A stretch of 64,000 nt of DNA from Naegleria gruberi (taxonomy: Eukaryota): assembly GCA_000004985.1 (NCBI GenBank), contig GG738896.1. One strand, given 5' to 3'. The number at the start of each line of letters is the position of its first letter. Positions within the stretch are counted from its first letter, which is position 1. Shown here in pieces: positions 9,842 to 61,385 of this stretch. The position numbers were made by a program, and so were the translations under genes. The notes below the pieces were generated by a model. The model searched no databases. It was given only the letters and a program-made list of their open reading frames with translations, and had not been told where the DNA came from.

Positions 9842-10959
9842 ATGTCCACTTATAAAGACGCCTCTGAAGCTGTTCTCTATGATAAGAATGGTTTGCCAAT
9901 CTATGGTATGGATTTGGAATTGGTATGTAATGATTATTCGAAACTGTTAAACTAAACAATTTTTCTTTTCCTCATTATTATTAATAATAATACAACAAAT
10001 ATTTTCCATTGCCAAATCATTAACCTCATCCATTGTATCAAACATTCCATCCACTCCACACTATTCTTTTATACGAAACCTTTCATAAATTTAAACAACT
10101 ATAGTACAAGAAACAAGCCGGTAAATACGATTCTGACAAGGAAAGAGAAGTTCAACAATGGATCGAATCTGTTGTTGGTGAAAAATTTGCTTCCAACGAT
10201 TTCCAAGAATCACTCAAGGACGGACACTTGTTGTGTAAATTGATCAACAAGATTAAACCAGGTTCCATTCCAAAAATCAACCAATCTAAATTACCATTCA
10301 TGCAAATGGAAAATATTGGTTACTTTTTGAAAGCTGCTGCTGATTTGGGTCTCCAAAAGCATGATGCTTTCATGACTGTTGACTTGTACGAATCAAAGAA
10401 TATTCCACAAGTTATTCAATCACTTTTCATTTTCGGTTCAGTTGTCCAAAAATTGCCAGGTTACAATTTGCCACGTTTAGGATTAAAGTTGGCCGATAAG
10501 AGAGAAATTGAATTCACTGAAGAACAATTGAGAAAGGCCAATGCTGAAGTTGGTCAACAATATATGGCAAGTATTAAGCACGATACTGGTCGTTCAATTT
10601 CCAGAGAAGTTGTCAAGACTCGTGATACTGGTGATGCTTCAGTTACTTCTCAATTGAGTACTGCTTCCATTAAACATGACACTGGTCGTTCAATTTCTAG
10701 AGAAGTTGTCAAGACTAGCTCTACAGGTGACAAGCGTTTCACTTCTCAACAAAATGAAAAGTCAATCTCACACGGTCAAGATAGATCTATCAGTAATGAA
10801 GTTGTCAAGATTCAACCATCTTCATCCAAGAGTCCAACAACCTCCTCTGGATCAATGGATGGTTTGGAAGAATTGGAAAAATTGGCCTCATTGAGAGATA
10901 AGGGAATTTTGACTGAAGAAGAATTCCAACAAAAGAAGAGACAAATTCTCGGATTGTAA
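9842..10959 (+). CDS. Calponin-homology (transgelin/Scp1-like) protein with a C-terminal SHOCT-like motif, 2 exons (9842..9922, 10105..10959)
   Basis: Exon 1 encodes MSTYKDASEAVLYDKNGLPIYGMDLEL. The GTATGT donor is at 9923 and the acceptor AG at 10103-10104. Exon 2 holds the CH domain (YDSDKEREVQQWIE...GHLLCKLINKIKPGSIPKIN...FMQMENIGYFLKAA...VDLYE). Three internal IKHDTGRSISREVVKT repeats follow. The tail is LASLRDKGILTEEEFQQKKRQILGL. Confidence 0.75.
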
Positions 10960-11999: not shown

Positions 12000-12598
12000 T
12001 TATTTACTGAAATATTGAGCTATGGTTTTGACTATATCTTGAGATTCCTTTTCTGAGTTTACTTGATATAAATGTTCGTAAGGGCCTTCATATTGTTGAG
12101 GTGGTTTAAATCCTTTAGCAAATTCATCCACTACCTCATCAGCCTTATCAGCTTGAAGTGTTGGATGGTTCTTTCTCGATTTTACATTTAATTTACATTG
12201 TTCAGGTGTTGTTGCAAACCAAACCAAGTCAATATGTTTCACTCCCAATTTCTTAGCTTCAGTAATCCACATTTTTCTATATCAATTTCAATATCAAAAT
12301 GTCATCGTTATTGTAAATTATTCAATAAATATACTAACCTATCCTTCGGATGAATATTACATCTATCTAATATTACTGACTTGTTATGTTTAAACGATTT
12401 TTCCATCACCTTTTTGCATTCCGAAGCATCTCCCAAAGTATCCTGATTGACTCGCACAAAATTTGTTGATTTCTTTTCTAATTGTTCCGAAAAGGTTGAT
12501 TTTCCAGATCCTGGAAATCCACAACAAATAATTAAATAAGTTTCTGGTGTTACTTTTGCTGTGCTACTACTCGATGATGATTTTTTGGTCATTTTCAA
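12000..12598 (-). CDS. P-loop kinase, polynucleotide-kinase (PNKP kinase-domain)-like, 2 exons (12598..12339, 12276..12000)
   Basis: Walker A LIICCGFPGSGKSTF. Motifs VNQDTLG and ILDRCN are as in PNK-type kinases. The minus-strand GTTAGT donor is at 12338 and the AG acceptor at 12277-12278 (62-nt intron). This joins ...HPKDR to KMWITEAKKLGVKHIDLVWF. Confidence 0.6.
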
Positions 12599-12934: not shown

Positions 12935-15508
12935 ATGATGTTTACAAGACAAACTGCCAGAAAATCAACTGGTGGAAAGGCACCTCGCAAACAAGTTGGT
13001 TCAAAATCAGCTTTAGGATTAAATTCTTCTAATGCGAGAAAATATCAAATTAATATTAGCGAGTTGAAGGCTAAACATCAACAGCAACTTTCTGATCAGA
13101 ATAATTATAATTTGAATGATGACGCTGATTTGAAGAAATTTATTGATGATCAATATGAAAATTGTGATGATTTGGTTAAAAAGTGGATTCACGATGATTT
13201 GGTCAATCAAAAAGAGGAGATTCAACAATCGGATAGTGATGTAGAGCTTGATACAAGATTGTTGAAAGAATTGGATGAAAATACCAAGTTTGAAATTTTG
13301 CAATTCATTCCAACATTTTCACCAAATGTTGCCAATCAGTCCTTGACTGAAGAAAGAAATATTGAAATGAATCTCGATACTGAATTGATTAGATTTCACA
13401 AAATGAGATTAATTAACAAGAGTTTCAACAAGATTATGATGAAGAAAATTCTCACTCTCAAACATATTACCTTGAAAACTGCTACCAACACTTTAAATTA
13501 TATTAGTTTGCTCTCTATTGCTCAGAAGGCATACAAACAAGCAATGATGATGAACTCGAACCATGATCTAAATATTGATAATGTTTTATTATATAACCCT
13601 TATTCATCAGTAGAAATAGTTGACAACAACCAAAGTTTTGGTTTCAATAACTTTGGTGGTTTTTCAACAGGTCTCAATAGCTTTGGTGGTTTCTCAACAG
13701 GATTTGGTACTTTCGGTACTACAGCAAGCAGTATACTTCAAAACACCAATGAAATCCCATCCGATTCGAGAGAACTAATTTCTGAAGATTCTGAGGATGA
13801 GCTTATTGCAAAATTGTATTTAAAGAGAGAGGACAAGAAAAATCCCCAAAAAGTAGATATTGATTACATGCGTGAAGAGGTTTATTTATACACACATGCA
13901 TCACATACCACTTCTCAAAATCAAAGTAGTTCATATCCACCTGTTATTATGACAGTCAATGAAACTATTGAAACTTTAACTTTGGTAATGGAAGATCAAT
14001 ATCTAGCCAAAGATATTGTAGGGTTTTTTTCTAAATTGAAAAGACTTAATATTTTCATGAATAATGCAACTTTTTATTACGGAGAAGTATTCAACTTGGC
14101 TTCAGAATCTCTAGAGGAAGTTTTAGTTTGTGGTGCTGGTTTGTTAGAACTTCTTATCAACCAACCATATTTGCTAAGCTCTTTTTCTGGGGCTTCTTGT
14201 CCAAAGATGACATCAGTTACATTTTCTCCTCTACTTCCAAATATTTATGCACCAGAAAATATTCTTGATACCTACTTTTCTCAACTACAAGTCACTAATC
14301 CAACCATCCACAAGCTTAATATTTATGATAAGATTGGTAGAAATGAATCCGCATTTATCAAATCTGAAGTATTTACCACTACCAATCCTGTTCAAAGAGA
14401 GCTAAATGTTTACTGTGTTCAATACAAGTCACTTGTAAACATTGATATCTTGGAGGAACTCTATGATATATTTGGAGACCGTTTCGTGAAAACCGTAATG
14501 CCATTCATGATACTCGGATATAATTGCCCTGTAACATTGGAACATGACCAATCACTTTGGAAATCTCATTTTGTGGAACACATGAAAAAGTTCAAAGATA
14601 CTGCAAATTACTTGTTCAAGAAGAGGAAATTTCCTGTTTCAAACGTGTTGCTTTCATTTGACATTATGACAAATAATGTTTTAGAACAGAACATCAAGGA
14701 CAGCAAATTACAATACCTCATATACCTATGTAACCAGTATCAAAATTCTAAACTTTTAAGCTATCTACCTGAAAACAAACAAACTCTATCAACAATTATT
14801 GCCTCAATTTATAGAGGATGGAATTTCACAAAATATACAAATGATCTCTTGGAATTCTTTGTTAGAGCCTTTTTTCACAGAGGAGTTTCTGCCATGTTAC
14901 ATAACTTTAAGTATGATGAAAAATTTATTGTATCTCAAATTGAGTATTTGGCTACTAGTTACACGATTAGTTCTACGATTAGTTCTAGGGCCGTTATTAC
15001 TGAGATAATTATCCACCTCTTCAGAAATAACTCAAAGGTTCTCTACTCTCTTCTTGCAAAACAGGTGGAAGTTTCTGATAATAACACTACATTTACAATT
15101 CCATTTATTGCCTTCCTCTTCGGAAAGGCAGATTGCTATTTAATTGCTAAACTATTTAATGAAATGGACATGGAAACATTCAATTCTTTAGGTCAAAACA
15201 ATAGAGGCGACAACATTCTCCACATTTATGTTTACTTTCAACAAGAATTTAATTACCTCATCTTTTATTCCATACTAAACAAGAATCCAAACTTGATTAA
15301 CATGGTCAATCACAAATTGCAAACTCCGCTTCATTACTTGATGACACTAAATGACAAGAGATCACCTCTTTTACTTCCAGAAATCAATCAACTTCTTAAA
15401 CGTAATAATATTTTGTTAGATATGAATGTTACCGATTATATGGAACAAACTCCTATGAGTATTCTTAAATCAGAAGAATATGAACATGAAGATATCATGT
15501 TTGAATAA
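12935..15508 (+). CDS. Large protein with a histone H3 tail-like N-terminus, FG-type repeats and C-terminal ankyrin repeats
   Basis: 857-aa single-exon ORF. Residues 3-21, TRQTARKSTGGKAPRKQ, match the H3 tail ARTKQTARKSTGGKAPRKQ at 17 of 18 positions. FGFNNFGGFSTGLNSFGGFSTGFGTFG are nucleoporin-like FG repeats. The C-terminus holds ankyrin repeats (GDNILHIY..., QTPLHYLM..., QTPMSIL). Confidence 0.7.
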   Translation: MMFTRQTARKSTGGKAPRKQVGSKSALGLNSSNARKYQINISELKAKHQQQLSDQNNYNLNDDADLKKFIDDQYENCDDLVKKWIHDDLVNQKEEIQQSDSDVELDTRLLKELDENTKFEILQFIPTFSPNVANQSLTEERNIEMNLDTELIRFHKMRLINKSFNKIMMKKILTLKHITLKTATNTLNYISLLSIAQKAYKQAMMMNSNHDLNIDNVLLYNPYSSVEIVDNNQSFGFNNFGGFSTGLNSFGGFSTGFGTFGTTASSILQNTNEIPSDSRELISEDSEDELIAKLYLKREDKKNPQKVDIDYMREEVYLYTHASHTTSQNQSSSYPPVIMTVNETIETLTLVMEDQYLAKDIVGFFSKLKRLNIFMNNATFYYGEVFNLASESLEEVLVCGAGLLELLINQPYLLSSFSGASCPKMTSVTFSPLLPNIYAPENILDTYFSQLQVTNPTIHKLNIYDKIGRNESAFIKSEVFTTTNPVQRELNVYCVQYKSLVNIDILEELYDIFGDRFVKTVMPFMILGYNCPVTLEHDQSLWKSHFVEHMKKFKDTANYLFKKRKFPVSNVLLSFDIMTNNVLEQNIKDSKLQYLIYLCNQYQNSKLLSYLPENKQTLSTIIASIYRGWNFTKYTNDLLEFFVRAFFHRGVSAMLHNFKYDEKFIVSQIEYLATSYTISSTISSRAVITEIIIHLFRNNSKVLYSLLAKQVEVSDNNTTFTIPFIAFLFGKADCYLIAKLFNEMDMETFNSLGQNNRGDNILHIYVYFQQEFNYLIFYSILNKNPNLINMVNHKLQTPLHYLMTLNDKRSPLLLPEINQLLKRNNILLDMNVTDYMEQTPMSILKSEEYEHEDIMFE

Positions 15509-19160: not shown

Positions 19161-19175
19161 TTTTGGCGCCAAAAG
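19161..19175. promoter_or_regulatory. Palindromic E2F-like element TTTTGGCGCCAAAAG, 11-25 bp upstream of the ATG at 19186
   Basis: A perfect 14-bp palindrome TTTTGGCGCCAAAA lies within an AT-rich intergenic region. Confidence 0.45.
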
Positions 19176-34619: not shown

Positions 34620-35084
34620 ATGCAAACTCCAACAAAGGTCATCCTCTCCCATAGCATTCAACTTTCTGGTGTGAAATGCAGAACAACCAACAAGGACGAA
34701 ATGAATCCTTCCACAGCAAGAATTGGTCAACTTTGGGGTCAATTCTTCCAACAATCTACTCAACCAATTCAATCCAAAATTTACAGTGTCTATACCAACT
34801 ATGAATCAGACCATAATGGAGCATATGATATCTACGTAGCCACTCCATCATCAGAAAGCAATCGAAACTTGACCGAAACTATTCAAATTCCTCAAGAAAA
34901 TGATGAAGAATTTCTCGTCTTTTCAGGCAGTGGAAAGATGCCAGAGACATGCATTAACTTATGGCAGTCCATTTGGCAATATTTTGACAAGCACCACGTA
35001 GAATATTCACGTGCCTTCTCTCTCGATTTTGAAGAGTACGACGACAAGGAAAATGTTAAGATTTACATTGCATTGAAAAAGTAA
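34620..35084 (+). CDS. GyrI-like (SbmC/AraC effector-binding type) small-molecule-binding protein
   Basis: 154 aa with no intron. ARIGQLWGQFF...YSVYTNYESDHNGAYDIYVATP...EFLVFSGSG...NLWQSIWQYFDKHHVEYSRAFSLDFEEY is collinear with bacterial GyrI-like domains. Confidence 0.55.
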   Translation: MQTPTKVILSHSIQLSGVKCRTTNKDEMNPSTARIGQLWGQFFQQSTQPIQSKIYSVYTNYESDHNGAYDIYVATPSSESNRNLTETIQIPQENDEEFLVFSGSGKMPETCINLWQSIWQYFDKHHVEYSRAFSLDFEEYDDKENVKIYIALKK

Positions 35085-45562: not shown

Positions 45563-46830
45563 TTATAATTGTTCTTCTTGTTGTTTTTGTTCTTCAGTAG
45601 TGTATTCATAAACATAATCAGTAATAATTTCCTTAGCTTCATCAGATAAATATTTAGAAATTGCTTTCTGGTCAACTTTAGCGAGAGAATCCCACTCATT
45701 CGAATGTTCCTTCTTGAAATCTGCCAAAATATCCTGAACAAACAAAGCCAAACACTTATTTCTCAATTTAAATGAAGTGATAATATTACCAATTTTGGAA
45801 ATGGCAGATTCCAATCGATTATCATTCAAATATTGAACTATTAAATCGAATACTGGAGTGGAAACAGATTCATTATCAAAGGTTGGCTTTTTGGTTTTTT
45901 TTCTAGGTCTTGGTGGCTTTTTTGGTTGCACAACTTCCTTAAATGCTTCATTCTTCTTCTTGATAATAAATCGTTCTCCCTTTTCCTTTGTGAACATATC
46001 TCTGATTGGCTTAATAACCACTCCTTCACAGATATTTGGACATGATTCAACGAGTGGGAGGTTGTAGAATAATTGTGGAATTTTGGTTGGATAATTGCAA
46101 TCGTATTCTAAACATTCTTCCAAAGTTCCTCTCATCACTTCTTTGGCATATCGAGAAATTCCACATTCAGTGAGTAATTGAATCATCTTGTCATAGGCCA
46201 AATAGAATCCTTCTTCCTTCTTTGTTTCTACATTTAATCCAAATACATAGACATCGAACATATAGAAATCATAATCAGGAGTATAATACACATGTTTTTG
46301 AATTGGATATCTTCCTTTTACATTTTCTATTTGATCATGAGGATATTGACCTCCAAAACTATTTCAAGAATTCCAAAATAAATAAATTTTACACTTAAGG
46401 ACACTTACATTTCTCCATAGAAATTAGCTCTTCTCACCTTAAAATTATCATTCGAATAGATATCACAAATACTCTTAAAAACCTTCTTTATCTGTTCCTC
46501 ATATCTATTCCTCACAATCTCCACAGCCTCAGGAAAGAAATCGTCATCTTCATGAGGTGATTTTTTCTTCTTTTGTTTTTCCTCTTCATCCAATCCAACA
46601 TATTGTCTTCGGGATGCAACCTGGCATTGAATATCTTCCACAAGACACGAATTGGCAGTCTGATAATTATCCCTCCACATTACAAAACTAAAATTACATC
46701 CATGAATCTTTTCAGAGACAACCCAAGGAATTGATGGATCATAATTCTCATCACGGATTAAATTCTTGGCAAATTCTTGATAGTGATTCTCGATGGAACT
46801 GTACGCTTTGAAATGATGTTGATTCTTCAT
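45563..46830 (-). CDS. Rnl2-family ATP-dependent RNA ligase-like protein, 2 exons (46830..46409, 46358..45563)
   Basis: Motif I VVSEKIHGCNFSF is like KIHGTN of T4 Rnl2 and kinetoplastid REL1. The minus-strand GTAAGT donor at 46408 and AG acceptor at 46360-46359 (50-nt intron) join ...ANFYGE-I-FGGQYPHDQIENVKGRYPIQKHVYYTPDYDFYMFDVYVFG. Confidence 0.65.
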
Positions 46831-50408: not shown

Positions 50409-51314
50409 TTAAGCATTGAAACCAGCAGCTCTAACAACTTGTGCAGAGGTGTATGATGAAACACTGAATCCAGAATCATTAACTTCGAAAACACCATTAG
50501 AGTAACTCTTAGCCAAAACCCAATGTCCACCATTTCTGACGTTCAAAATGACAACCTTTCCTTGACAGACCCAATTGATAATAGCTTGCTTATCAGTAGT
50601 TTGTCCAAGATAATTGAATCCAAGTCTAGAAACAGCTCCCCAAACAAACAAATTTCCATAATAACCTCCATTCTTCAACAAGTATTGGTTCAATTGACCT
50701 GGGTTCATTGAACTCTTTCCTCTACCATTCAAAGCAGAACAAACTGAATTCATCAAACAACCAACTTGACAAATAGTGGAAGAACTTCCAAGTCTATCAC
50801 CACCCCATCTAGAATCACATTGTTTAAAGAGTGGATAATTGTAATTTTGTCTACAACCAGATGTAGAACCACCACCACCACCTCCATTTTGAACAACAGT
50901 TAAGAAATTAGAGGCAGCATAACCAGTTCCAAAACTACCAGAAACCTTATACCAAGTATAACCACATCCACTTTGGACTTCACCAGTGAATTTGACAACT
51001 TGACCATTTCCAAGAGTAGTAATAATTGATTTACCAGTGCATGGTCCACTTCTGACATTCAAAGCAGTGGTTGCTTTCAAGGAAGCTCCACTAGCAATTG
51101 ATGAATCAGATTCGGCATCTGACATTTCGAAATCTTCTTCAGATTCGGATTGAACACTTTGAATGGCATTAATTGGAAGATCAATAGCGAAATTGGTGGC
51201 CAATGAAGGTTCTCCAACCAATTTGACACTTCTATTGTTTGGATAAGCACGTTGACAAGAGACAACGACAGCAAATGTCAAGAGCAATAAAATTCCCACG
51301 AAGATTTTGTTCAT
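50409..51314 (-). CDS. Secreted bacterial-type cell-wall hydrolase-like protein: signal peptide, SH3b domain, Gly linker and papain-like C39-type cysteine peptidase domain
   Basis: The ATG at 51314 starts MNKIFVGILLLLTFAVVVSCQ (signal peptide). The SH3b-like segment is LNVRSGPCTGKSIITTLGNGQVVKFTGEVQSGCGYTWYKVSGSFGTGYAASNFL. A GGGGGGS linker follows. The peptidase module has Cys in QVGCLMNSVCSAL and His in NGGHWVLA, then NDSG. No intron. Confidence 0.6.
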   Translation of the reverse strand: MNKIFVGILLLLTFAVVVSCQRAYPNNRSVKLVGEPSLATNFAIDLPINAIQSVQSESEEDFEMSDAESDSSIASGASLKATTALNVRSGPCTGKSIITTLGNGQVVKFTGEVQSGCGYTWYKVSGSFGTGYAASNFLTVVQNGGGGGGSTSGCRQNYNYPLFKQCDSRWGGDRLGSSSTICQVGCLMNSVCSALNGRGKSSMNPGQLNQYLLKNGGYYGNLFVWGAVSRLGFNYLGQTTDKQAIINWVCQGKVVILNVRNGGHWVLAKSYSNGVFEVNDSGFSVSSYTSAQVVRAAGFNA

Positions 51315-51729
51315 TTTTTTTGTGATGATTTTTTGGCAGTTGAAAGGTTGAATATTAAAATCAAATTGCTGCTCAGCCAATACGGATAATAAACATGAAC
51401 GAGATGGTAATGAAAGAATAAAAATAGAATGTTAAATAATTGGGGCATTATGATATTGAGGGGGCATTGAAACGAATCGAATAGAAAATGTGCATTTATT
51501 CCAAACAAAATACTAAGTGATGCTTGAAAGGTAATCTTGCGCTGGAGTAACCGACAACATGATCTTGAAATGCATGCTTGTTGTTTGAAGAAGGTGGTTA
51601 TTGTAATAGTTTGTGATTGTTCAAATGGATGTTAGATAGAGAAATTTCAATCTTTTTGCATCTACAGTTCTATCAAATAACTTCTTTCCAATATTCGAAT
51701 AAGATTTTTACAAAATATACAATAGGATT

Positions 51730-53037: not shown

Positions 53038-56000
53038 TTATTCAACCTTAGATGATTGCTCTGATTGTTCTAGAGAGAGGGATCTGAAAATAGGGAAGAA
53101 GGAAGTAACATCATCATTGTCTTCACATCGATCGTAAATGTATTGTTCTGTACCTGTGAATTCAGTCACTGATTTTTGGTAGAGGTAAATTAAAAAGTAG
53201 ACATAATTCCACAAGTAGTGTTCCTCCTTGACATGCTTTTCAAAGGTGATACCTTCATTGGCTCTTGTATCGAATTTAGTTCGTTCCAATCCACAAATAA
53301 AACACTTATCTCGAATGTCCTTCTTTCTGTCTTCTCTTTCATTTCTCAGTACTTCAAACGAATCGAGAATGACACCAAACACAACGTTAACAAGTAACAC
53401 AATAACTATCACTAAAAAGGAAAGGTCAAGTATGGCTCTCTGAACTGAAACATTTGGATCATAAATATCCTCCCAAAAAGATTCTCCTCTAAAGCCATAA
53501 TCCAACATGGTCACATAGCAAGCTAACATATCTTCACATGTCTTGTCGCCTGTCTTGGAGATTTTAAAATCTGAAGAAAAGAAGGTAAAATAGAGTGTAC
53601 CAAAGAAGAATAAGGCAATACACAACAACATTCCTGTAAAGAACAAACGTTTCACATTCGAAGTAACTGATTTCAACACATCGGTCAATGACTTGAAGAT
53701 GTAAACCATTTCAAAAAGCTGTATCGAGTAAATAATTGGAGTTATCAACAATCCAATCACAGAGACTACAATGTAAATAATAAAATACCAAATTTGAGAA
53801 TCTTGTATGGTATATAAAAAGCATTTGGTCATAAAATCAAAATCTCTTGGAATTGAGTCCCACGTTTCGTTTTTCTTTAGCTTGAATCGTTTCTTCACTT
53901 CCAACGTCAAGAAGAGTGATACATAAATGACAAATAGAATTACCAGGAAAATCAATTGTGTCACACCAACAATAATAAGAATTATATCACTTGCAAGATT
54001 TCTAGGTGCTGTAGTTTTGGTGAGAGCATATACATCAAAGTCACTGCCAGGTAAAGGTATTTGAGAATACTCTGTTGTTGCATAAATTCTCTTAAATGTT
54101 CCCAAAACAATAATATTAATAATAACAGAGAGGAAGAATGAAGACAATCTCAAGTAATCCCACCAATTGGCAATATATTCCCATGATGCTGTTTTAACCT
54201 CTTGTTTCTTCTTTTTCTTTCGTTTTGCTAGCAAATTGCTGGTTGTGGCAACGAGAGACATTGAAGGCAAAAGATTTTCCATTTCCTCCTCTGGTTCCTC
54301 TTCTTCTTTCTTGTTGAGATTCGGAATAGTAAAAGTCTTTTTCATATTTTCATAGTGACACATTTCCACATAGAATGTACTGAATGTGTCATTGTACAAT
54401 TTCCTAACTTTTTCTTGTGGAGTCATTACGTGCAACGAATTGGCATAGTTGCTTCTTGCCTTATCGATAATATTGTTACATATTGTTGGTTTGGGAAAGT
54501 AGATCTTTTCAAGTACGTTATTTCTCAATACTTCAATGCTACCAGTTCTTTGTTTGAAATAAGAGAGCTCCTTTGAATTGGTTTGGAAAAAGTTGGCTAC
54601 TCTTGATTCCTCTTCCAAAGCTTGAGTACCCTTTCTGAATTCAGTCTCACTGTCCCTGATCATGGAGAGAAGGAAAAAGATGTGAGTTCCCAAGTCATCG
54701 TATTGCAATCTAATCTTCTCGAGATTGTCCTCCATATAGTCGTCGACACGGATTGGCTTCTTTGAACTCTTCTCAGATTGATACAAAACATGGAATCCAA
54801 AGTCTTTACGCATTCTCTTTTTGAGTCTTTCAAGATCATCACAATCATCATGGTTATTACCCGATAGAGTTTCGAACAATCTCAAAATGTACAATAATTT
54901 TTGTTCAAAATCATCCAAATTCAAAGAATTTTTCATGAATTCTAATGTGACTGTGTTTCTTCCTTCCAATAGAGATATTAAGAAGAGTGTAATTTCCTTC
55001 TTGAGGTCAAGCTCTTGTTCCTTCAACAACTTGCTGTCATCGTAGGTCTTACTCATGATTTCATTGATAAGTCTTGGATAAATCTTATTGGATGTACCAA
55101 TTAAATTTTGGTTAAAGACAGCAGGTCCTTGGACAAATTCGGTCAGGGTCTTAAAACCTTGGATGGCTACTTGAACATTGTCTGCATCCAATTTCTTTTC
55201 CAAAGCAATCAAATATTCAATAATTTCCGTAATTAAATCAAAGCTGAAAATATTTCTTGGTTGATGTTTCAATAGGGCTTGATTTTTGGTATTATGGCCT
55301 TCACACAATAATCTCAAAAATTCCATAGTGTTAAAAATGAATCCCTTTTCTACAAATTCCACACCAACTTCATCTTCTTCGTTATCATGGTCAGCATTGA
55401 GGTTAGTTGTAGACTTTTTCTGGTTAGCTAGTGCCAACTCCTTGTCTCTCTTTTTCTTCAAGTGATTCTTCATTTGTTTGATTTCAATCTTTGAGAGACG
55501 GATTCTGTCTCTAAGAGACATGAAAAATTCGGTAGAGTCTTGATCTGTAAGAAGCGAATAAATATGATTCTGAACGTCAAGATCTCCGTCATTCAATATT
55601 AAAATACCAAGCTCCAAAGCTGATTTTGCAATTTGATGGTGGTTAGAGTTGAGGAATTCAATAACTACCTCAGGAATTTTCTTTTCCACCAAATCTAATT
55701 TAAGAGTTGATTCTTCGGTTTGTTGGTTTTGCCTTTCAACAATACTCTTCAAAATATCCATACCAAAGAGTCCTACCTTCATGTTCTGAAGAAGTAAACC
55801 AGAACTATTCAAGTCACGTAATACATTGACGAGTGTTTTGATAAATCCATCATATTTGATAAATATGGCAGCAAGCTCTGAAAAGTTGGAAAAGTTTCTA
55901 TTAATCTTGGAAATTATTCTGTCTTTCAAGTACTTTTTGTATGTGTTGTGGATAAGTTCGTCCTTCTCGGTACTGGTTGATGTTTGTATTCTTGATCTAT

Positions 56001-59000
56001 GTACCTTGGCTTTAGTGGCCTTATTTGAAATGAAATTAGAAATTGCTTTCTGACTAGTTGAAGACATACTTCTCTTCAACATGGCCTGAATACATTTGAG
56101 AACTTTATCCCTATTCTCTGGATTTGGTGTATGTTTGTGAAGTTCTATGAGTTTTATCAACAAATCTTCTGCAATATCCAACTGTTCTTTTGTCAGATTT
56201 GGAGGTGGGAAGTGGAGATGGAAATAATCTCTCACACAAGGAATCATAATATCAAACAAATAGGTATTATCAACTTGATAGGTTTCTTGATCTTCCTCAC
56301 TAGGTCCAACGACTTTTGGAAGTGCTACAGAGTATGTTTTCGAAGATCGTTTGGAAGCAGTTGTTGACAATCCACGGTTTTTGGTTGGAGTAGCAAACAG
56401 TGAAGTGTTTGAGAGGGTTTTGCTTGGTGTTGTTGGGGTTCGAGTATGGGCATGCATAATACTTTGTCTTTCACCTTTTTGTGTGGATAAAATCAAGTCG
56501 TTACCATCTGATTCATTTGAATAGGTCATTTCTAACACTTCCAATTCAGTAACCATTTTAGAGAATAACTTGAAAAGCATTGGATGATGAACATTTACCA
56601 TCTTGCTCTCAGATTCTGTAGAGTCATCTGATGCCTTTTCAACATTCAAGTAAATTTCATCAATAACTTTAACCAATGGATTTCTCAATACAGGTAGAGT
56701 ACAACAAATAACTTGTTCTAAAAGTTCTTCATAGCTGTAGAGGGTTTGTAATTTAAGCTCACTCTCTCTGTTTTTACCATCAGCAAGAGAGGCCAACAAG
56801 TATAAAAGGGCAATGTGATAATTTAAAATACCATCTGGTTCAGTTTTGTGTTCACCTTTGATAATTCTTTGATTACGTTCTCTGAGACCTTCTTCGTCTT
56901 TGAAAAGAATCATAATGTCCTTCTTTCTTTCGAGCAGATATTTGGTAATGAGTGATTGGTTTCGTTTGATTGGATTGCCATTATTTGTTCCCAGAATGAC
57001 ATGCAAGAACAACAACATGAAAGAGCAAGGTTGCTCAGCAATTTGGTCAATGTAGTGTTCGATTAATTTTTCTTCAATAGTACTGCACAGACCTCTATTG
57101 TCTCTTACCATTTCACAAAGGAGAATGACAATCTTCTTATCTAGACTTCTATTCTCACCAATAGTGTGAATAAAGAATTCCAATTGTTTGAACATAATCT
57201 TTTGATTGTCTTGATTTCCTCTAACAAAAGCAATTAAAATATCAATACCAATCTCTTCAATTTCCTTGCTCACAATATAATCCTTCTTGAGGAATGTGAG
57301 AATAATATCATAAATGAAGAGATTTCTCACTATTCTTTGTGATCTTTGACCATTCTTCTTGATATCTGATAGGATTTCATTGAGAGCTTTTAGGACTTTT
57401 TTCTCTTCCTGTTCTGTGAGTCTTCTAGTACCAAAATAATTGCTTTGACCATAACCAAAAACAGATCGCAACTCAACTACCTGTGAAAGTAGCAAATCGT
57501 AGGATTTAGCCATTTCTCTCGAAACGATAAGTTCAATCTTTGGAAGAACTTCACATAATTCTTGAGCAGATCTGTACTTTCTAATTAGTAAATCAAGGCA
57601 GGTTGTAGCGAGTTCCTTATTTTCATATTTGGTCAGCGAAAGAATTTTAACATCGAATCGATCCATCTTGTTGAAAATAACATCCTTTTCGAGAATATCT
57701 TTGATTACAGCATATTCATTAGAGTCAATTTCGGCAAGTCTTTTCTGTTGTAAAGCTCTATTGTCCATTGGTATCACCTCTTGTTCTCTAAGTACAGTCT
57801 CAATCTCTTCCTCTCTGTATTTCTTCCAAAAGAATTGCAAGAATTTTGTCACTCTCTTGTCTAAAATAATGTCTAGAATCATGTGGAAGATGGAAGCAAT
57901 TTCAATTTTGATCTTCATGAGGGTTAAATTTTCTTCTACGTTTTTGTGTCTTTCTTCCTCACTAAGAATTCTACCATCCTTCTTGTCATTATCTCCTCTG
58001 AGCATATCAAAGAGAGAATTCAACAAATCACCCTCCTCAAAGTCTATCAATGTAAGAACTCCAAATTCCAACATTCTCTTACACATAATTACAACGTATA
58101 ATGTAAAGTTGTTGTGATCCTTCTTTTCTAAAGACACATCCAAGCTAACATTCTCTCTAAGGAATTTCCCTAAAAAATCTTTGATTTCTGCCAAATCCTT
58201 TGAGTTGCCGTCTTCTTTTGATCTTTGATTGAGAGTACTGGTTTTTCTGGTGTAGTCAATCAGTGGTTTCTTTTCTCTCTTCTCCGTATCAATGAAAGTT
58301 TGGATCAAAAGCTTTACAAATGATGTTCTGACGGCTGGTGTTAAATTCTTATCAGAGACACATTTGTGGACAACTTCGTAGGTGAACAGAGAAACAACAG
58401 ATCTTCTCGCATCCTCAATTTCTTCATTTCTTCCTGTACAGAGGGCAGCAAAAAGACGAATTTCCTCTTGGAAGAAGATGAGTTGTTCATAATTTGGTCT
58501 TGTGTATCCATTGTATGTATCATCTGTTGCAGACTGAGAGAAACTAATCAAGTCTATTTCATCATGATTGACTTCTACCACAACCTTGTCTTCATTGTTA
58601 AGCTTTGGAATGATAAAAACTCTTCTCAATTGGTCCTTATATTTTGAAAAAAGCAAATTACCAATATATACCTGATTTTTCACCACAGTTTTACCTTCAC
58701 AAATGATCAAGCTAGTCAAAAAGGATAAATAGACAGCCTTCTTCAAGCTCTTGGAACTTTGTCGCATACCAATCTTTGATGTGTTTTCAAAGAGAAGCTT
58801 GACGAAAAAGTCAATTTGTGACTCGGTAATCTTGTTCAAAAGTGGATAATTGTTGGATAAGATTTCCAACAGAGCTTCACTTGCAGCAATGCTATGTTCA
58901 ATCAGAGTTTGGATAAAGTTGATATATTGTGCCATGTAGAGACCGTTAGATTCGTTTGAAAGGACAAACTGTCTAATGAGTCTGAAGGAGTACTGAACCA

Positions 59001-61385
59001 CATCAAAATAAAGTGCCTTCTCTGGCTTTTCATAAATTAAAGATAAATCCTCAATTGATAAATATTTCTTCAATAATAGAGTGATATTTTCCATTACAAG
59101 ACCAATGACTCCCATATCTCTGATGATATTTTGTCTAAGTTTAACAGGAATACCACCTCTTGTTAGAGGGTCTGTCTCTTCACTAATAGTACAAAATCTA
59201 ATGCAATTTGCCAATGCACCAATGTAGAGTTTGATATCTGACTTGTCAATGAGCGAGTCGTCCAACTTGGATTTGAAATACCTAATAATTGGCATGTAAC
59301 CAGCTACGGTGAGTGCATCATTCAAATCCTCATGTGAAACAGCTGAAAAATTGAAAACATCCTGTTCAAACATTTTCAAAGATGAAGTTACTCTCTGATA
59401 GGTTGAGTCAGCAAGTGGTCTAGATATGTGTACCCAAGAATTAGTGGCTTCATGCCTCAATCTAAAGTAATCGGTGGTTTGAACTTTCTCACCCTTCTTT
59501 TGTCCTCCAGTCGAGTCGGTGAAATGGAAGACACTGGTTGGTATTGGTTGTGTAATCAAGTCATCAAAGTTTTCAACATGAAGAGTCCACAATGAATCAT
59601 TTTGTGTTACGCTGCCTGATCTATTTCCTCGTGGAGTGGCTACAATTGAACTTTTTCTAGGTGCATTAACTCCAAGTTGGCTCAAGTTATCACCAGATGT
59701 TGGTGTGTTTTCTCGTTCATATCTTTCTTCAATGGCATCATCCGCTTCAATGGTTATTCCTTTAATAGGACGAATCACCATGTATTTTCCACTTGCCAAG
59801 TGTCTTAGACGGAATTTCGAAGTCCACTTTACAGTACCAGAACAGCTAGAGTCTAAAAATTCCAATTGCCACAAAGTTTGAGGACTCACATAGTCAGAAG
59901 ATTTAGATTCCATACCAGCCAAGCTTGTATCCTCAGAGTCGTTGATTTGTAGATTGCTTGATTTCTTGAAAAATTTAATTCTATCCGTTTTTTCATTCAC
60001 TCCAATATATCCTTCCAATTCCTTGTGGTATATTCTCATAATGGTGGATCCTGCTTTGAGTTTTCTATTTGTTTCATCATTTTGTGGTGTGTATTTTTGG
60101 TAGAGTTTCATTCTCCACCTAGTGAATGCAGTACTATTCGCCATGTTAACTTCTCTTCTACTATCGTAGGAATATTTTCCTCTATTTCGTGATAATTTTA
60201 CAGCTTGTTGAGCTAATTCTGTGTATGAAGAATTTTCATTCACTCTTTGATAGGTACCATCATTGTCTTCTCCAGTTGTGTATCTATAATAGGATAAGTG
60301 AATAAATTGGTTGGACTTTTTGTTGTAAAGTCTAATTTGATCAGTGAGTTTAACTTGATCTCCATCCTTTTGAAAACTGGAATATGGCATTATTTGAAAG
60401 TATGAATAGGTAGATCCTTCTTTATCGAGGGCCAATCTCATACAATCCTTTTGCATTTCTGCAGATTCTCTTGCTACTGTCAGATAGCACTGTGTTTGTA
60501 CATGATACAATTGTACTGTTTGTCCATAGACAACTGGTTTTGAAAGGTTTCTTTGTGATTCCATCCTATTTTGTTCAAGTTCTCTTTCAGCTCGTTGTTC
60601 CAATTGTTGATATTCTGTTGAGAAGGAGGCTGTCGAAGGCATTACATTATTCTTGTTATCCTTTGTTTTTTTGTTGGCCTCTTTCAACTCTTGTTCTTCT
60701 TTGAAGGTTTTGAACTTTTTCAGTGCTGAATAACTCTTTGGATGACAAATCTTGAAAACACAATTAGAAAAGTTTGGTGTAAAGAAGGAAGAATCCTTTT
60801 CTGAAATGACAGATTCCACCAGACCACATCTAGCTTGTGGTTTGTTTCTAAAATATTGATGAAATAATAAAAGTAGTATTTAACAGAGAATAAAGAAGGT
60901 GAATAATTAGTTGAATATTTAAACAATATTTACCCTTTAACATTCTCGGAACAAGTCAAATTAATACCATCCACACTCAAGAACCCAATCATTGAATTAC
61001 CAGTACTTTTTGATGACAAATCCGTATAGAAGGAAATTTCCTCTCCAATTCTCAAATAATCTCCCTTCTTTTTCATCATCATATTATTCATCCACAATTG
61101 TTGCTCATCCTCCTTCACATCACTCATCACATCTTCATCCTCATCATACAAATGATGATCAAAGCCTTGTTGTTGCTGTGCAGAAGAGGATGATGATGAC
61201 GAATATTCGGAATGTTGTTCATGATGATGATTTGATGTGGCGCCATTATTTTTAACGGCAGAAGTGGCGCTTACCGATACGATGAGTTGTTCTTGTTGTT
61301 GATGAAATAAGAGTGCATAGTCAAAGAGGTGTTGTGATGATGGTTCGGAAGAGTTGCTATTGTTATGATTATTGGATAGTGTCAT
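53038..61385 (-). CDS. Inositol 1,4,5-trisphosphate receptor (IP3R/RyR superfamily) homolog, 2 exons (61385..60934, 60847..53038), about 2750 aa
   Basis: The exon-1 tail LRIGEEISFYTDLSSKSTGNSMIGFLSVDG is like the IP3R N-terminus SFLHIGDIVSLY...GFISTLG. The minus-strand GTAAAT donor at 60933 and AG acceptor at 60849-60848 (86-nt intron) continue into NKPQARCGLVESV...FSNCVFKICHPKSYSALKKF (like [20 protein letters not shown]). A six-TM C-terminal channel region follows. The signature tail is CFICGLERTKFD...FEKHVKEEHYLWNYVYFLIYL (IP3R: CFICGLERDKFD...EEHNMWHYLCFIVLV). Confidence 0.85.

Follow-up and report, generated by a model that had tools for sequence, protein, structure and literature searches.

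Within a 64,000-nucleotide (nt) stretch of Naegleria gruberi contig GG738896.1 (assembly GCA_000004985.1; hereafter the window), a minus-strand gene at 46830..45563 very probably constitutes, judging from its sequence, a nuclear, intron-containing locus for a two-domain RNA ligase of the Rnl2 family. The coding sequence (CDS) begins with an ATG at 46830 and ends with a TAA stop at 45565..45563, exactly the interval to which an earlier, sequence-only reading of this DNA had assigned an Rnl2-type ligase. Left unspliced, the frame terminates at ...FYGEM*; excision of a 50-nt GT-AG intron yields a 1,218-nt CDS in two exons and a protein of 405 amino acids (aa) (Table 1). From end to end, the product of the spliced gene shows 100% identity to N. 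gruberi XP_002672691.1 (EFC39947.1; NAEGRDRAFT_52138), which is annotated as "predicted protein." The existence and family assignment of this gene were already known. Unciuleac and Shuman (2015; PMC4408790) listed this exact accession among five N. gruberi Rnl2-family ligases, and the novelty implied by the sequence-only reading is lost. Our analysis is mainly a confirmation, and what it adds does not change current understanding.

Profile searches recovered both domains of the protein. PF09414 (RNA_ligase), the model whose use had been proposed as a check, matched residues 35 to 275 with an E value of 5.9e-21, and PF18043 (T4_Rnl2_C) matched residues 304 to 383 (E = 3.9e-25); both matches lie above the curated Pfam cutoffs. 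The NCBIfam model TIGR02307 (RNA ligase, Rnl2 family) matched residues 7 to 387 against model positions 1 to 318 of 326 (E = 2.1e-45). When the ligase was used as the query in a sequence search of the PDB, the only matches were Trypanosoma brucei REL1 (TbREL1; E = 8.4e-13) and T4 Rnl2 (E = 3.9e-12).

An alignment to T4 Rnl2 (sequence drawn from NC_000866) placed the residues of the nucleotidyltransferase (NTase) motifs in register. T4 residues E34, K35, H37, and N40 align with E40, K41, H43, and N46 of the ligase, giving motif I the sequence E40-K41-I-H-G-C-N46, in keeping with the KIHGxN motif from which, together with the downstream collinearity, the family had originally been called. Further along, T4 R55 corresponds to R74, F65 and F66 to F98 and F99, E99 to E140, Q106 to Q161, F119 and D120 to F175 and D176, R155 to R217, E204 to E252, K209 to K257, and K225 and K227 to K274 and K276. 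In the C-terminal domain, the T4 pair R266 and D292 corresponds to R322 and D350. The columns aligned to these catalytic and C-domain positions, which we take to be functionally important, are invariant across 44 homologues. Since the intron lies inside motif III, checking the downstream motifs after splicing is a sharp test of the assignment, and the sequence-only reading had staked itself on that outcome: motifs III, IIIa, IV, and V are all present in the correctly spliced protein. For T4 Rnl2, the literature documents the lysine of motif I and the R266-D292 salt bridge (PMC4599027).

A structural model led to the same family. The AlphaFold2 model, built on the 44-sequence alignment, had a mean predicted local distance difference test (pLDDT) score of 87.2, with helices at residues 304 to 404. 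In a Foldseek comparison with the PDB, the best match was full-length T4 Rnl2 (2hvr_A; E = 8.3e-18), aligned over 394 columns that span both domains, followed by TbREL1 (1xdn; E = 8.8e-16) and the T4 NTase fragment (1s68; E = 3.7e-13). The Naegleria Rnl5 enzyme NgrRnl was a weak match (E = 5.6e-07; 14 to 16% identity). On architecture, motifs, and fold, the protein is a member of the Rnl2 family.

Several observations weigh against this conclusion. The TIGR02307 score of 155.7 bits falls below the equivalog cutoff of 197.15, a cutoff set with the naming of prokaryotic and phage proteins in view; it does not define the Rnl2 family structurally. Two T4 residues that we presume to be functionally important, K54 and R33, are replaced by S73 and S39 in the ligase. 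Naegleria-specific inserts occupy residues ~52 to 66 and ~80 to 101, the latter acidic/basic in composition and modeled with low pLDDT. In the literature, we found neither biochemical nor expression data for XP_002672691.1 and no paper that mentions NAEGRDRAFT_52138.

By homology, Lys41 would be adenylylated by ATP, the AMP would be passed to a 5′-phosphate, and an RNA 3′-OH would then attack and seal the break. The enzyme retains the T4 Rnl2 C-terminal domain and for that reason would be expected to favor 3′-OH/5′-PO4 nicks, either in RNA duplexes or in RNA:DNA hybrids; both its activity and this substrate preference are predictions. A mitochondrial presequence is unlikely because the ATG is preceded, 36 nt upstream, by an in-frame TAA, ligase residue 7 aligns with T4 Rnl2 residue 2, and the heterolobosean orthologues likewise begin at a conserved FKxYSSIEN block. 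With no N-terminal extension, the ligase probably resides in the cytosol or the nucleus and not in mitochondria. We also considered the basic linker KKPPRPRKKTKKP as a nuclear localization signal. It resembles one, but the linker is basic throughout the family, including the T4 and bacterial members, and we gave it no weight as an indication of nuclear import.

An exhaustive HMMER search returned 2,386 relatives at an E value of ≤0.001. The closest are from other Heterolobosea, namely, Naegleria fowleri (XP_044566651.1; 60% identity), Willaertia magna (KAL9653790.1; 48%), Acrasis kona (KAL0491996.1), and Percolomonas cosmopolitus (MMETSP0758). One homologue is also encoded on a metagenomic contig whose neighboring genes are eukaryotic (Yip1, PP2C, and polyubiquitin). 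The position and phase of the ligase intron are identical in two other Naegleria contigs (L007 and L008) and thus in three Naegleria species. Named bacterial matches, at roughly 30% identity, are from Bacteroidota, and phage Rnl2 sequences share 27 to 30% identity. In a neighbor-joining tree (100 bootstraps), the N. gruberi ligase grouped with Willaertia and a further sequence, P0080 (87%). Bacteroidota formed a separate clade with 100% support, the T4-like phage enzymes lay farthest away, and the tree did not resolve its deep nodes. TbREL1, represented in the tree by a 171-aa fragment, fell inside a group of Naegleria and bacterial "long-loop" enzymes without support; in pairwise scoring the same fragment matched this subfamily (45 bits to N. 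gruberi) and not the T4-like enzymes. TbREL1 shares with the ligase an extended loop after motif III, and its NTase domain is closer to the Naegleria subfamily than to T4 Rnl2; both features are compatible with a scenario in which the heterolobosean two-domain clade is a vertically inherited enzyme of discoban ancestor type and REL1/REL2 were recruited from it by a C-terminal domain swap. We regard this scenario as doubtful.

Three other features of these relatives were observed. In both L007 (~nt 1677 to 1700) and L008 (~nt 341 to 365), the reading frame breaks directly after motif I (EKIHGCN(L/F)|R...), which would imply an additional intron at this point, absent from N. gruberi, and, with it, intron gain or loss within the genus. 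In the annotated N. fowleri protein XP_044566651.1, 16 residues that take in most of motif IV, GVVIKPVKELVTACKK, are missing; they are encoded without interruption in the genomic open reading frame (ORF) L007:2019-2915, and the gap probably reflects an intron wrongly introduced into the N. fowleri gene model, not a real loss. Finally, P0019, a 690-aa Rnl2 homologue from an ENA metagenome (52.9-kb contig), carries an intein with PF14890 (Intein_splicing) and PF03161 (LAGLIDADG endonuclease) domains. The intein sits within motif I, between EKVDG and the next N (EKVDG|C...HN|SNF).

The sequence-only reading had also noted a polynucleotide kinase (PNK)-like P-loop protein in the window and had proposed that it might act with the ligase in RNA repair. 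The kinase itself was borne out: the minus-strand gene 12592..12000 encodes a stand-alone polynucleotide 5′-kinase homologue of 176 aa (XP_002672686.1). Its boundary had been placed at 12598, where an upstream TTG lies; annotation begins the protein with the ATG at 12592. The product matches AAA_33 (E = 1.6e-17) and, over the kinase region, TIGR01663 (PNK-3′Pase; E = 5.2e-16). Against the PDB, the best matches were RazKIN (9d8a; E = 2.4e-22) and 9drz (E = 1.9e-19), with the kinase domain of mammalian PNKP (E of ~1e-15) and T4 Pnk next. RazKIN and MciKIN are stand-alone, GTP-dependent RNA 5′-OH kinases that have been implicated in tRNA splicing in Mucorales, and the roles of their P-loop, catalytic Asp, lid Arg, Arg99, and G-loop Ser146 have been described (PMC11571804). 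Like them, the Naegleria protein stands alone at ~175 aa and contains GSGKST, the catalytic Asp (D51), a DRCN motif, and the lid Arg (R119, corresponding to Arg103); unlike RazKIN, it has Asn115 at the position of the guanine-stacking Arg99. RazKIN Ser146 falls opposite Ser159 only by ungapped extrapolation past the end of the alignment. So far, descriptions of the RazKIN/MciKIN family have come only from fungi, and this protist homologue suggests that such stand-alone PNKs are not confined to them.

A dedicated healing-and-sealing pair, in which this kinase would phosphorylate 5′-OH ends and the Rnl2 enzyme would seal them, is nevertheless very unlikely. The kinase is a credible polynucleotide 5′-kinase by the matches and residues given above, a 5′-PO4 is what an Rnl2 requires, and each gene has a conserved counterpart in N. 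fowleri and in Willaertia. The two genes, however, lie 33 kb apart in a nonoperonic eukaryotic genome, separated by ~15 unrelated ORF-defined genes (Kelch and leucine-rich repeat [LRR] proteins, protein kinases, a TauE transporter, and others). The orthologues of the two occupy separate contigs both in N. fowleri (ligase FDP41_011799 on an 859-kb contig and kinase FDP41_003542 on a 668-kb contig) and in Willaertia magna (ligase ABK040_012851 on a 357-kb contig and kinase ABK040_016290 on a 242-kb contig), and with synteny lacking in both species we rejected the linkage. Among the window ORFs of ≥150 aa, there was no 2H phosphoesterase, phosphatase, RtcB, or Hen1 domain and no enzyme for 3′-end healing (3′-phosphatase or cyclic phosphodiesterase). 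In tRNA splicing, moreover, RazKIN and MciKIN have a Trl1-type ligase as their partner instead of an Rnl2, and seven Rnl1/Trl1-like ligases are available in N. gruberi. A functional relationship between the kinase and the ligase is not impossible; nothing in this analysis supports pairing them.

It is also highly improbable that the ligase is the orthologue of the kinetoplastid RNA-editing ligases REL1 and REL2 and acts in mitochondrial RNA processing. The resemblance is real: TbREL1 is the top PDB sequence match, Heterolobosea is sister to Euglenozoa, the REL1/REL2 NTase domain (PDB 1xdn) is of Rnl2 type with similar sequence and fold scores, and the scores of the TbREL1 fragment favor the Naegleria/long-loop subfamily over the T4-like phage Rnl2 enzymes. 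TbREL1 and the ligase both have the extended GE(L/I)FGGxYxH loop after motif III, which T4 Rnl2 is without. The ligase's C-terminal domain, however, is of the T4 type (PF18043), whereas that of the RELs, which are mitochondrial editosome subunits, recruits the OB-fold partners KREPA2 and KREPA1 (PMC4599027). The ligase likewise has no N-terminal targeting extension or presequence, and the tree gives no supported grouping of REL with Naegleria. We know of no U-insertion/deletion editing in Naegleria mitochondria, which we also counted against such an orthology. The Acrasis kona protein KAL0491996.1 is automatically annotated as "RNA-editing ligase 1, mitochondrial"; it begins at the conserved N-terminal block and has no presequence, and the mitochondrial REL1 label is probably an overannotation.

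The abundance of N. gruberi paralogues, the lineage-specific inserts, and the change of K54 to S73 might instead point to a catalytically dead paralogue, one of five, that is kept for RNA binding. This is scarcely credible for a protein that keeps every residue of the nucleotidyltransferase motifs intact, the adenylylated Lys among them, and whose orthologues conserve these residues. Contamination of the assembly, or a transfer from Bacteroidota or phage in the very recent past, might be suggested by the named matches outside Heterolobosea, which are Bacteroidota and phage Rnl2 proteins at ~30 to 33% identity. Either has negligible probability and is excluded because orthologues occur across Heterolobosea, in at least four genera, and the spliceosomal intron position is common to three Naegleria species, with the 100% support for a separate Bacteroidota clade and the setting of the gene also standing against it. 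That setting is a 331,721-bp scaffold on which the GC content of the ligase gene is like that of its surroundings (the window is ~33% GC throughout) and the window genes are ordinary eukaryotic ones: Kelch, LRR, and CH-domain proteins, protein kinases, a Ras/F-box protein, an NmrA-like protein, an IP3/ryanodine-receptor-like channel, and CFAP300. The Heterolobosea-wide clade with its conserved intron argues against a recent bacterial or phage acquisition, whereas an ancient transfer into the heterolobosean ancestor is conceivable. We retain what the sequence-only reading held, namely, that a eukaryotic nuclear genome here encodes an Rnl2-family ligase.

The GC palindrome that had been reported in the ligase promoter region was found there as TTGGCGCCAA (Table 1). 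Three exact copies occur in the window, all intergenic, against 0.017 expected from base composition; with one mismatch allowed, there are four against 0.69 expected, a number reached in 0 of 100 shuffles. A half-site, GGCGCCAAAA, is also present (Table 1). An extended form, TTTGGCGCCAAA/TTTTGGCGCCAAAA (at 19161), resembles the palindromic E2F consensus. GGCGCC is absent from both L007 and L008, the other Naegleria contigs with ligase orthologues. Upstream of the orthologues on these contigs there is no half-site or E2F-like match, the sole hit being TTGGCG at nt 2386 of L008, downstream of the ligase. We found nothing specific in the literature on an E2F-type element in Naegleria. In N. gruberi, TTGGCGCCAA is a real promoter-proximal element that is not specific to the ligase.

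Elsewhere in the window, the ORFs 10228..10959 (+), 34620..35084 (+), and 50409..51380 (-) have typically bacterial domains (SHOCT fused to a CH domain, Cass2/GyrI-like, and bacterial SH3_3) and may be acquired genes. An uninterrupted ORF of 2,592 aa at 53038..60819 (-) contains the IP3-receptor/ryanodine-receptor domains Ins145_P3_rec, MIR, RIH, RIH_assoc, and Ion_trans.

Table 1. Coordinates of the ligase gene, the predicted kinase gene, and the GC palindrome in the window
Feature	Position (nt)	Strand	Residues and remarks
Ligase exon 1	46409..46830	-	Residues 1-140 and 2 nt of codon 141; motif I, motif Ia (R74), first half of motif III (G139-E140)
Motif I	46713..46693	-	E40-N46; adenylylation Lys41 at 46710..46708
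Ligase intron	46359..46408	-	50 nt, spliceosomal; GTAAGT...AATAG; phase 2, within codon 141, inside motif III (FYGE|IFGG)
Ligase exon 2	45563..46358	-	Residues 141-405 plus stop; remainder of motif III, then motifs IIIa, IV, and V, basic linker, T4_Rnl2_C
Motif IIIa		-	F175-D176; ligase exon 2
Motif IV	46027..46010	-	E252-K257; ligase exon 2
Motif V	45961..45959 and 45955..45953	-	K274 and K276, respectively; ligase exon 2
Basic linker		-	About residues 285-297; ligase exon 2
T4_Rnl2_C domain	45871..45602	-	About residues 304-393; ligase exon 2
Kinase exon 1	12339..12592	-	P-loop G25-FPGSGKST; putative catalytic Asp51 in VNQD
Kinase intron	12277..12338	-	62 nt, GT-AG splice sites
Kinase exon 2	12000..12276	-	Lid Arg119, aligned to RazKIN Arg103; TAA stop at end
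Palindrome TTGGCGCCAA	46878..46887	.	48 nt upstream of ligase ATG
Palindrome TTGGCGCCAA	19163..19172	.	15 nt upstream of ATG preceding protein-kinase gene
Palindrome TTGGCGCCAA	61573..61582	.	Upstream of CFAP300 (flagellar) gene
Half-site GGCGCCAAAA	12887..12896	.	48 nt upstream of ATG at 12935

Compared with the known RNA ligases of its own organism, the protein belongs to one documented expansion. N. gruberi has an unusually large complement of these enzymes, with 13 ATP-dependent RNA ligases (5 Rnl2, 7 Rnl1 or Rnl1/Trl1-like, and the Rnl5 enzyme NgrRnl, XP_002669268.1) and 2 RtcB proteins (PMC4408790). Among these, only NgrRnl has been characterized; another Naegleria Rnl2 paralogue served Moreira et al. 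(PMC4599027) as a comparator for a Diplonema ligase. Rnl5 enzymes (NgrRnl and DraRnl) have an N-terminal OB-like domain before the NTase domain and no C-terminal appendage, whereas the NTase domain of the ligase starts at residue 7 and is followed by a C-terminal domain. The closest likeness is to T4 Rnl2 (gp24.1; PDB 2hvq, 2hvr, and 1s68). Both have an NTase domain followed by an all-helical C-terminal domain (PF18043; T4 residues 244 to 329), the catalytic motif residues and the C-domain Arg-Asp pair of T4 Rnl2 are all present in the ligase, and T4 Rnl2 is its best structural match over both domains. The two nonetheless share only ~30% identity and differ in length (405 aa versus 334 aa for T4 Rnl2). 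The ligase has two inserts after motif I and is without the T4-specific insert before motif IV, and its 14-residue loop after motif III, which T4 Rnl2 does not share, is common to the bacterial homologues and TbREL1. It also differs in being nuclear encoded with an intron and in scoring below the TIGR02307 equivalog cutoff. With its catalytic residues all present and a confident two-domain model like T4 Rnl2, the N. gruberi enzyme is a good candidate for the biochemical characterization of a eukaryotic, nonediting Rnl2.

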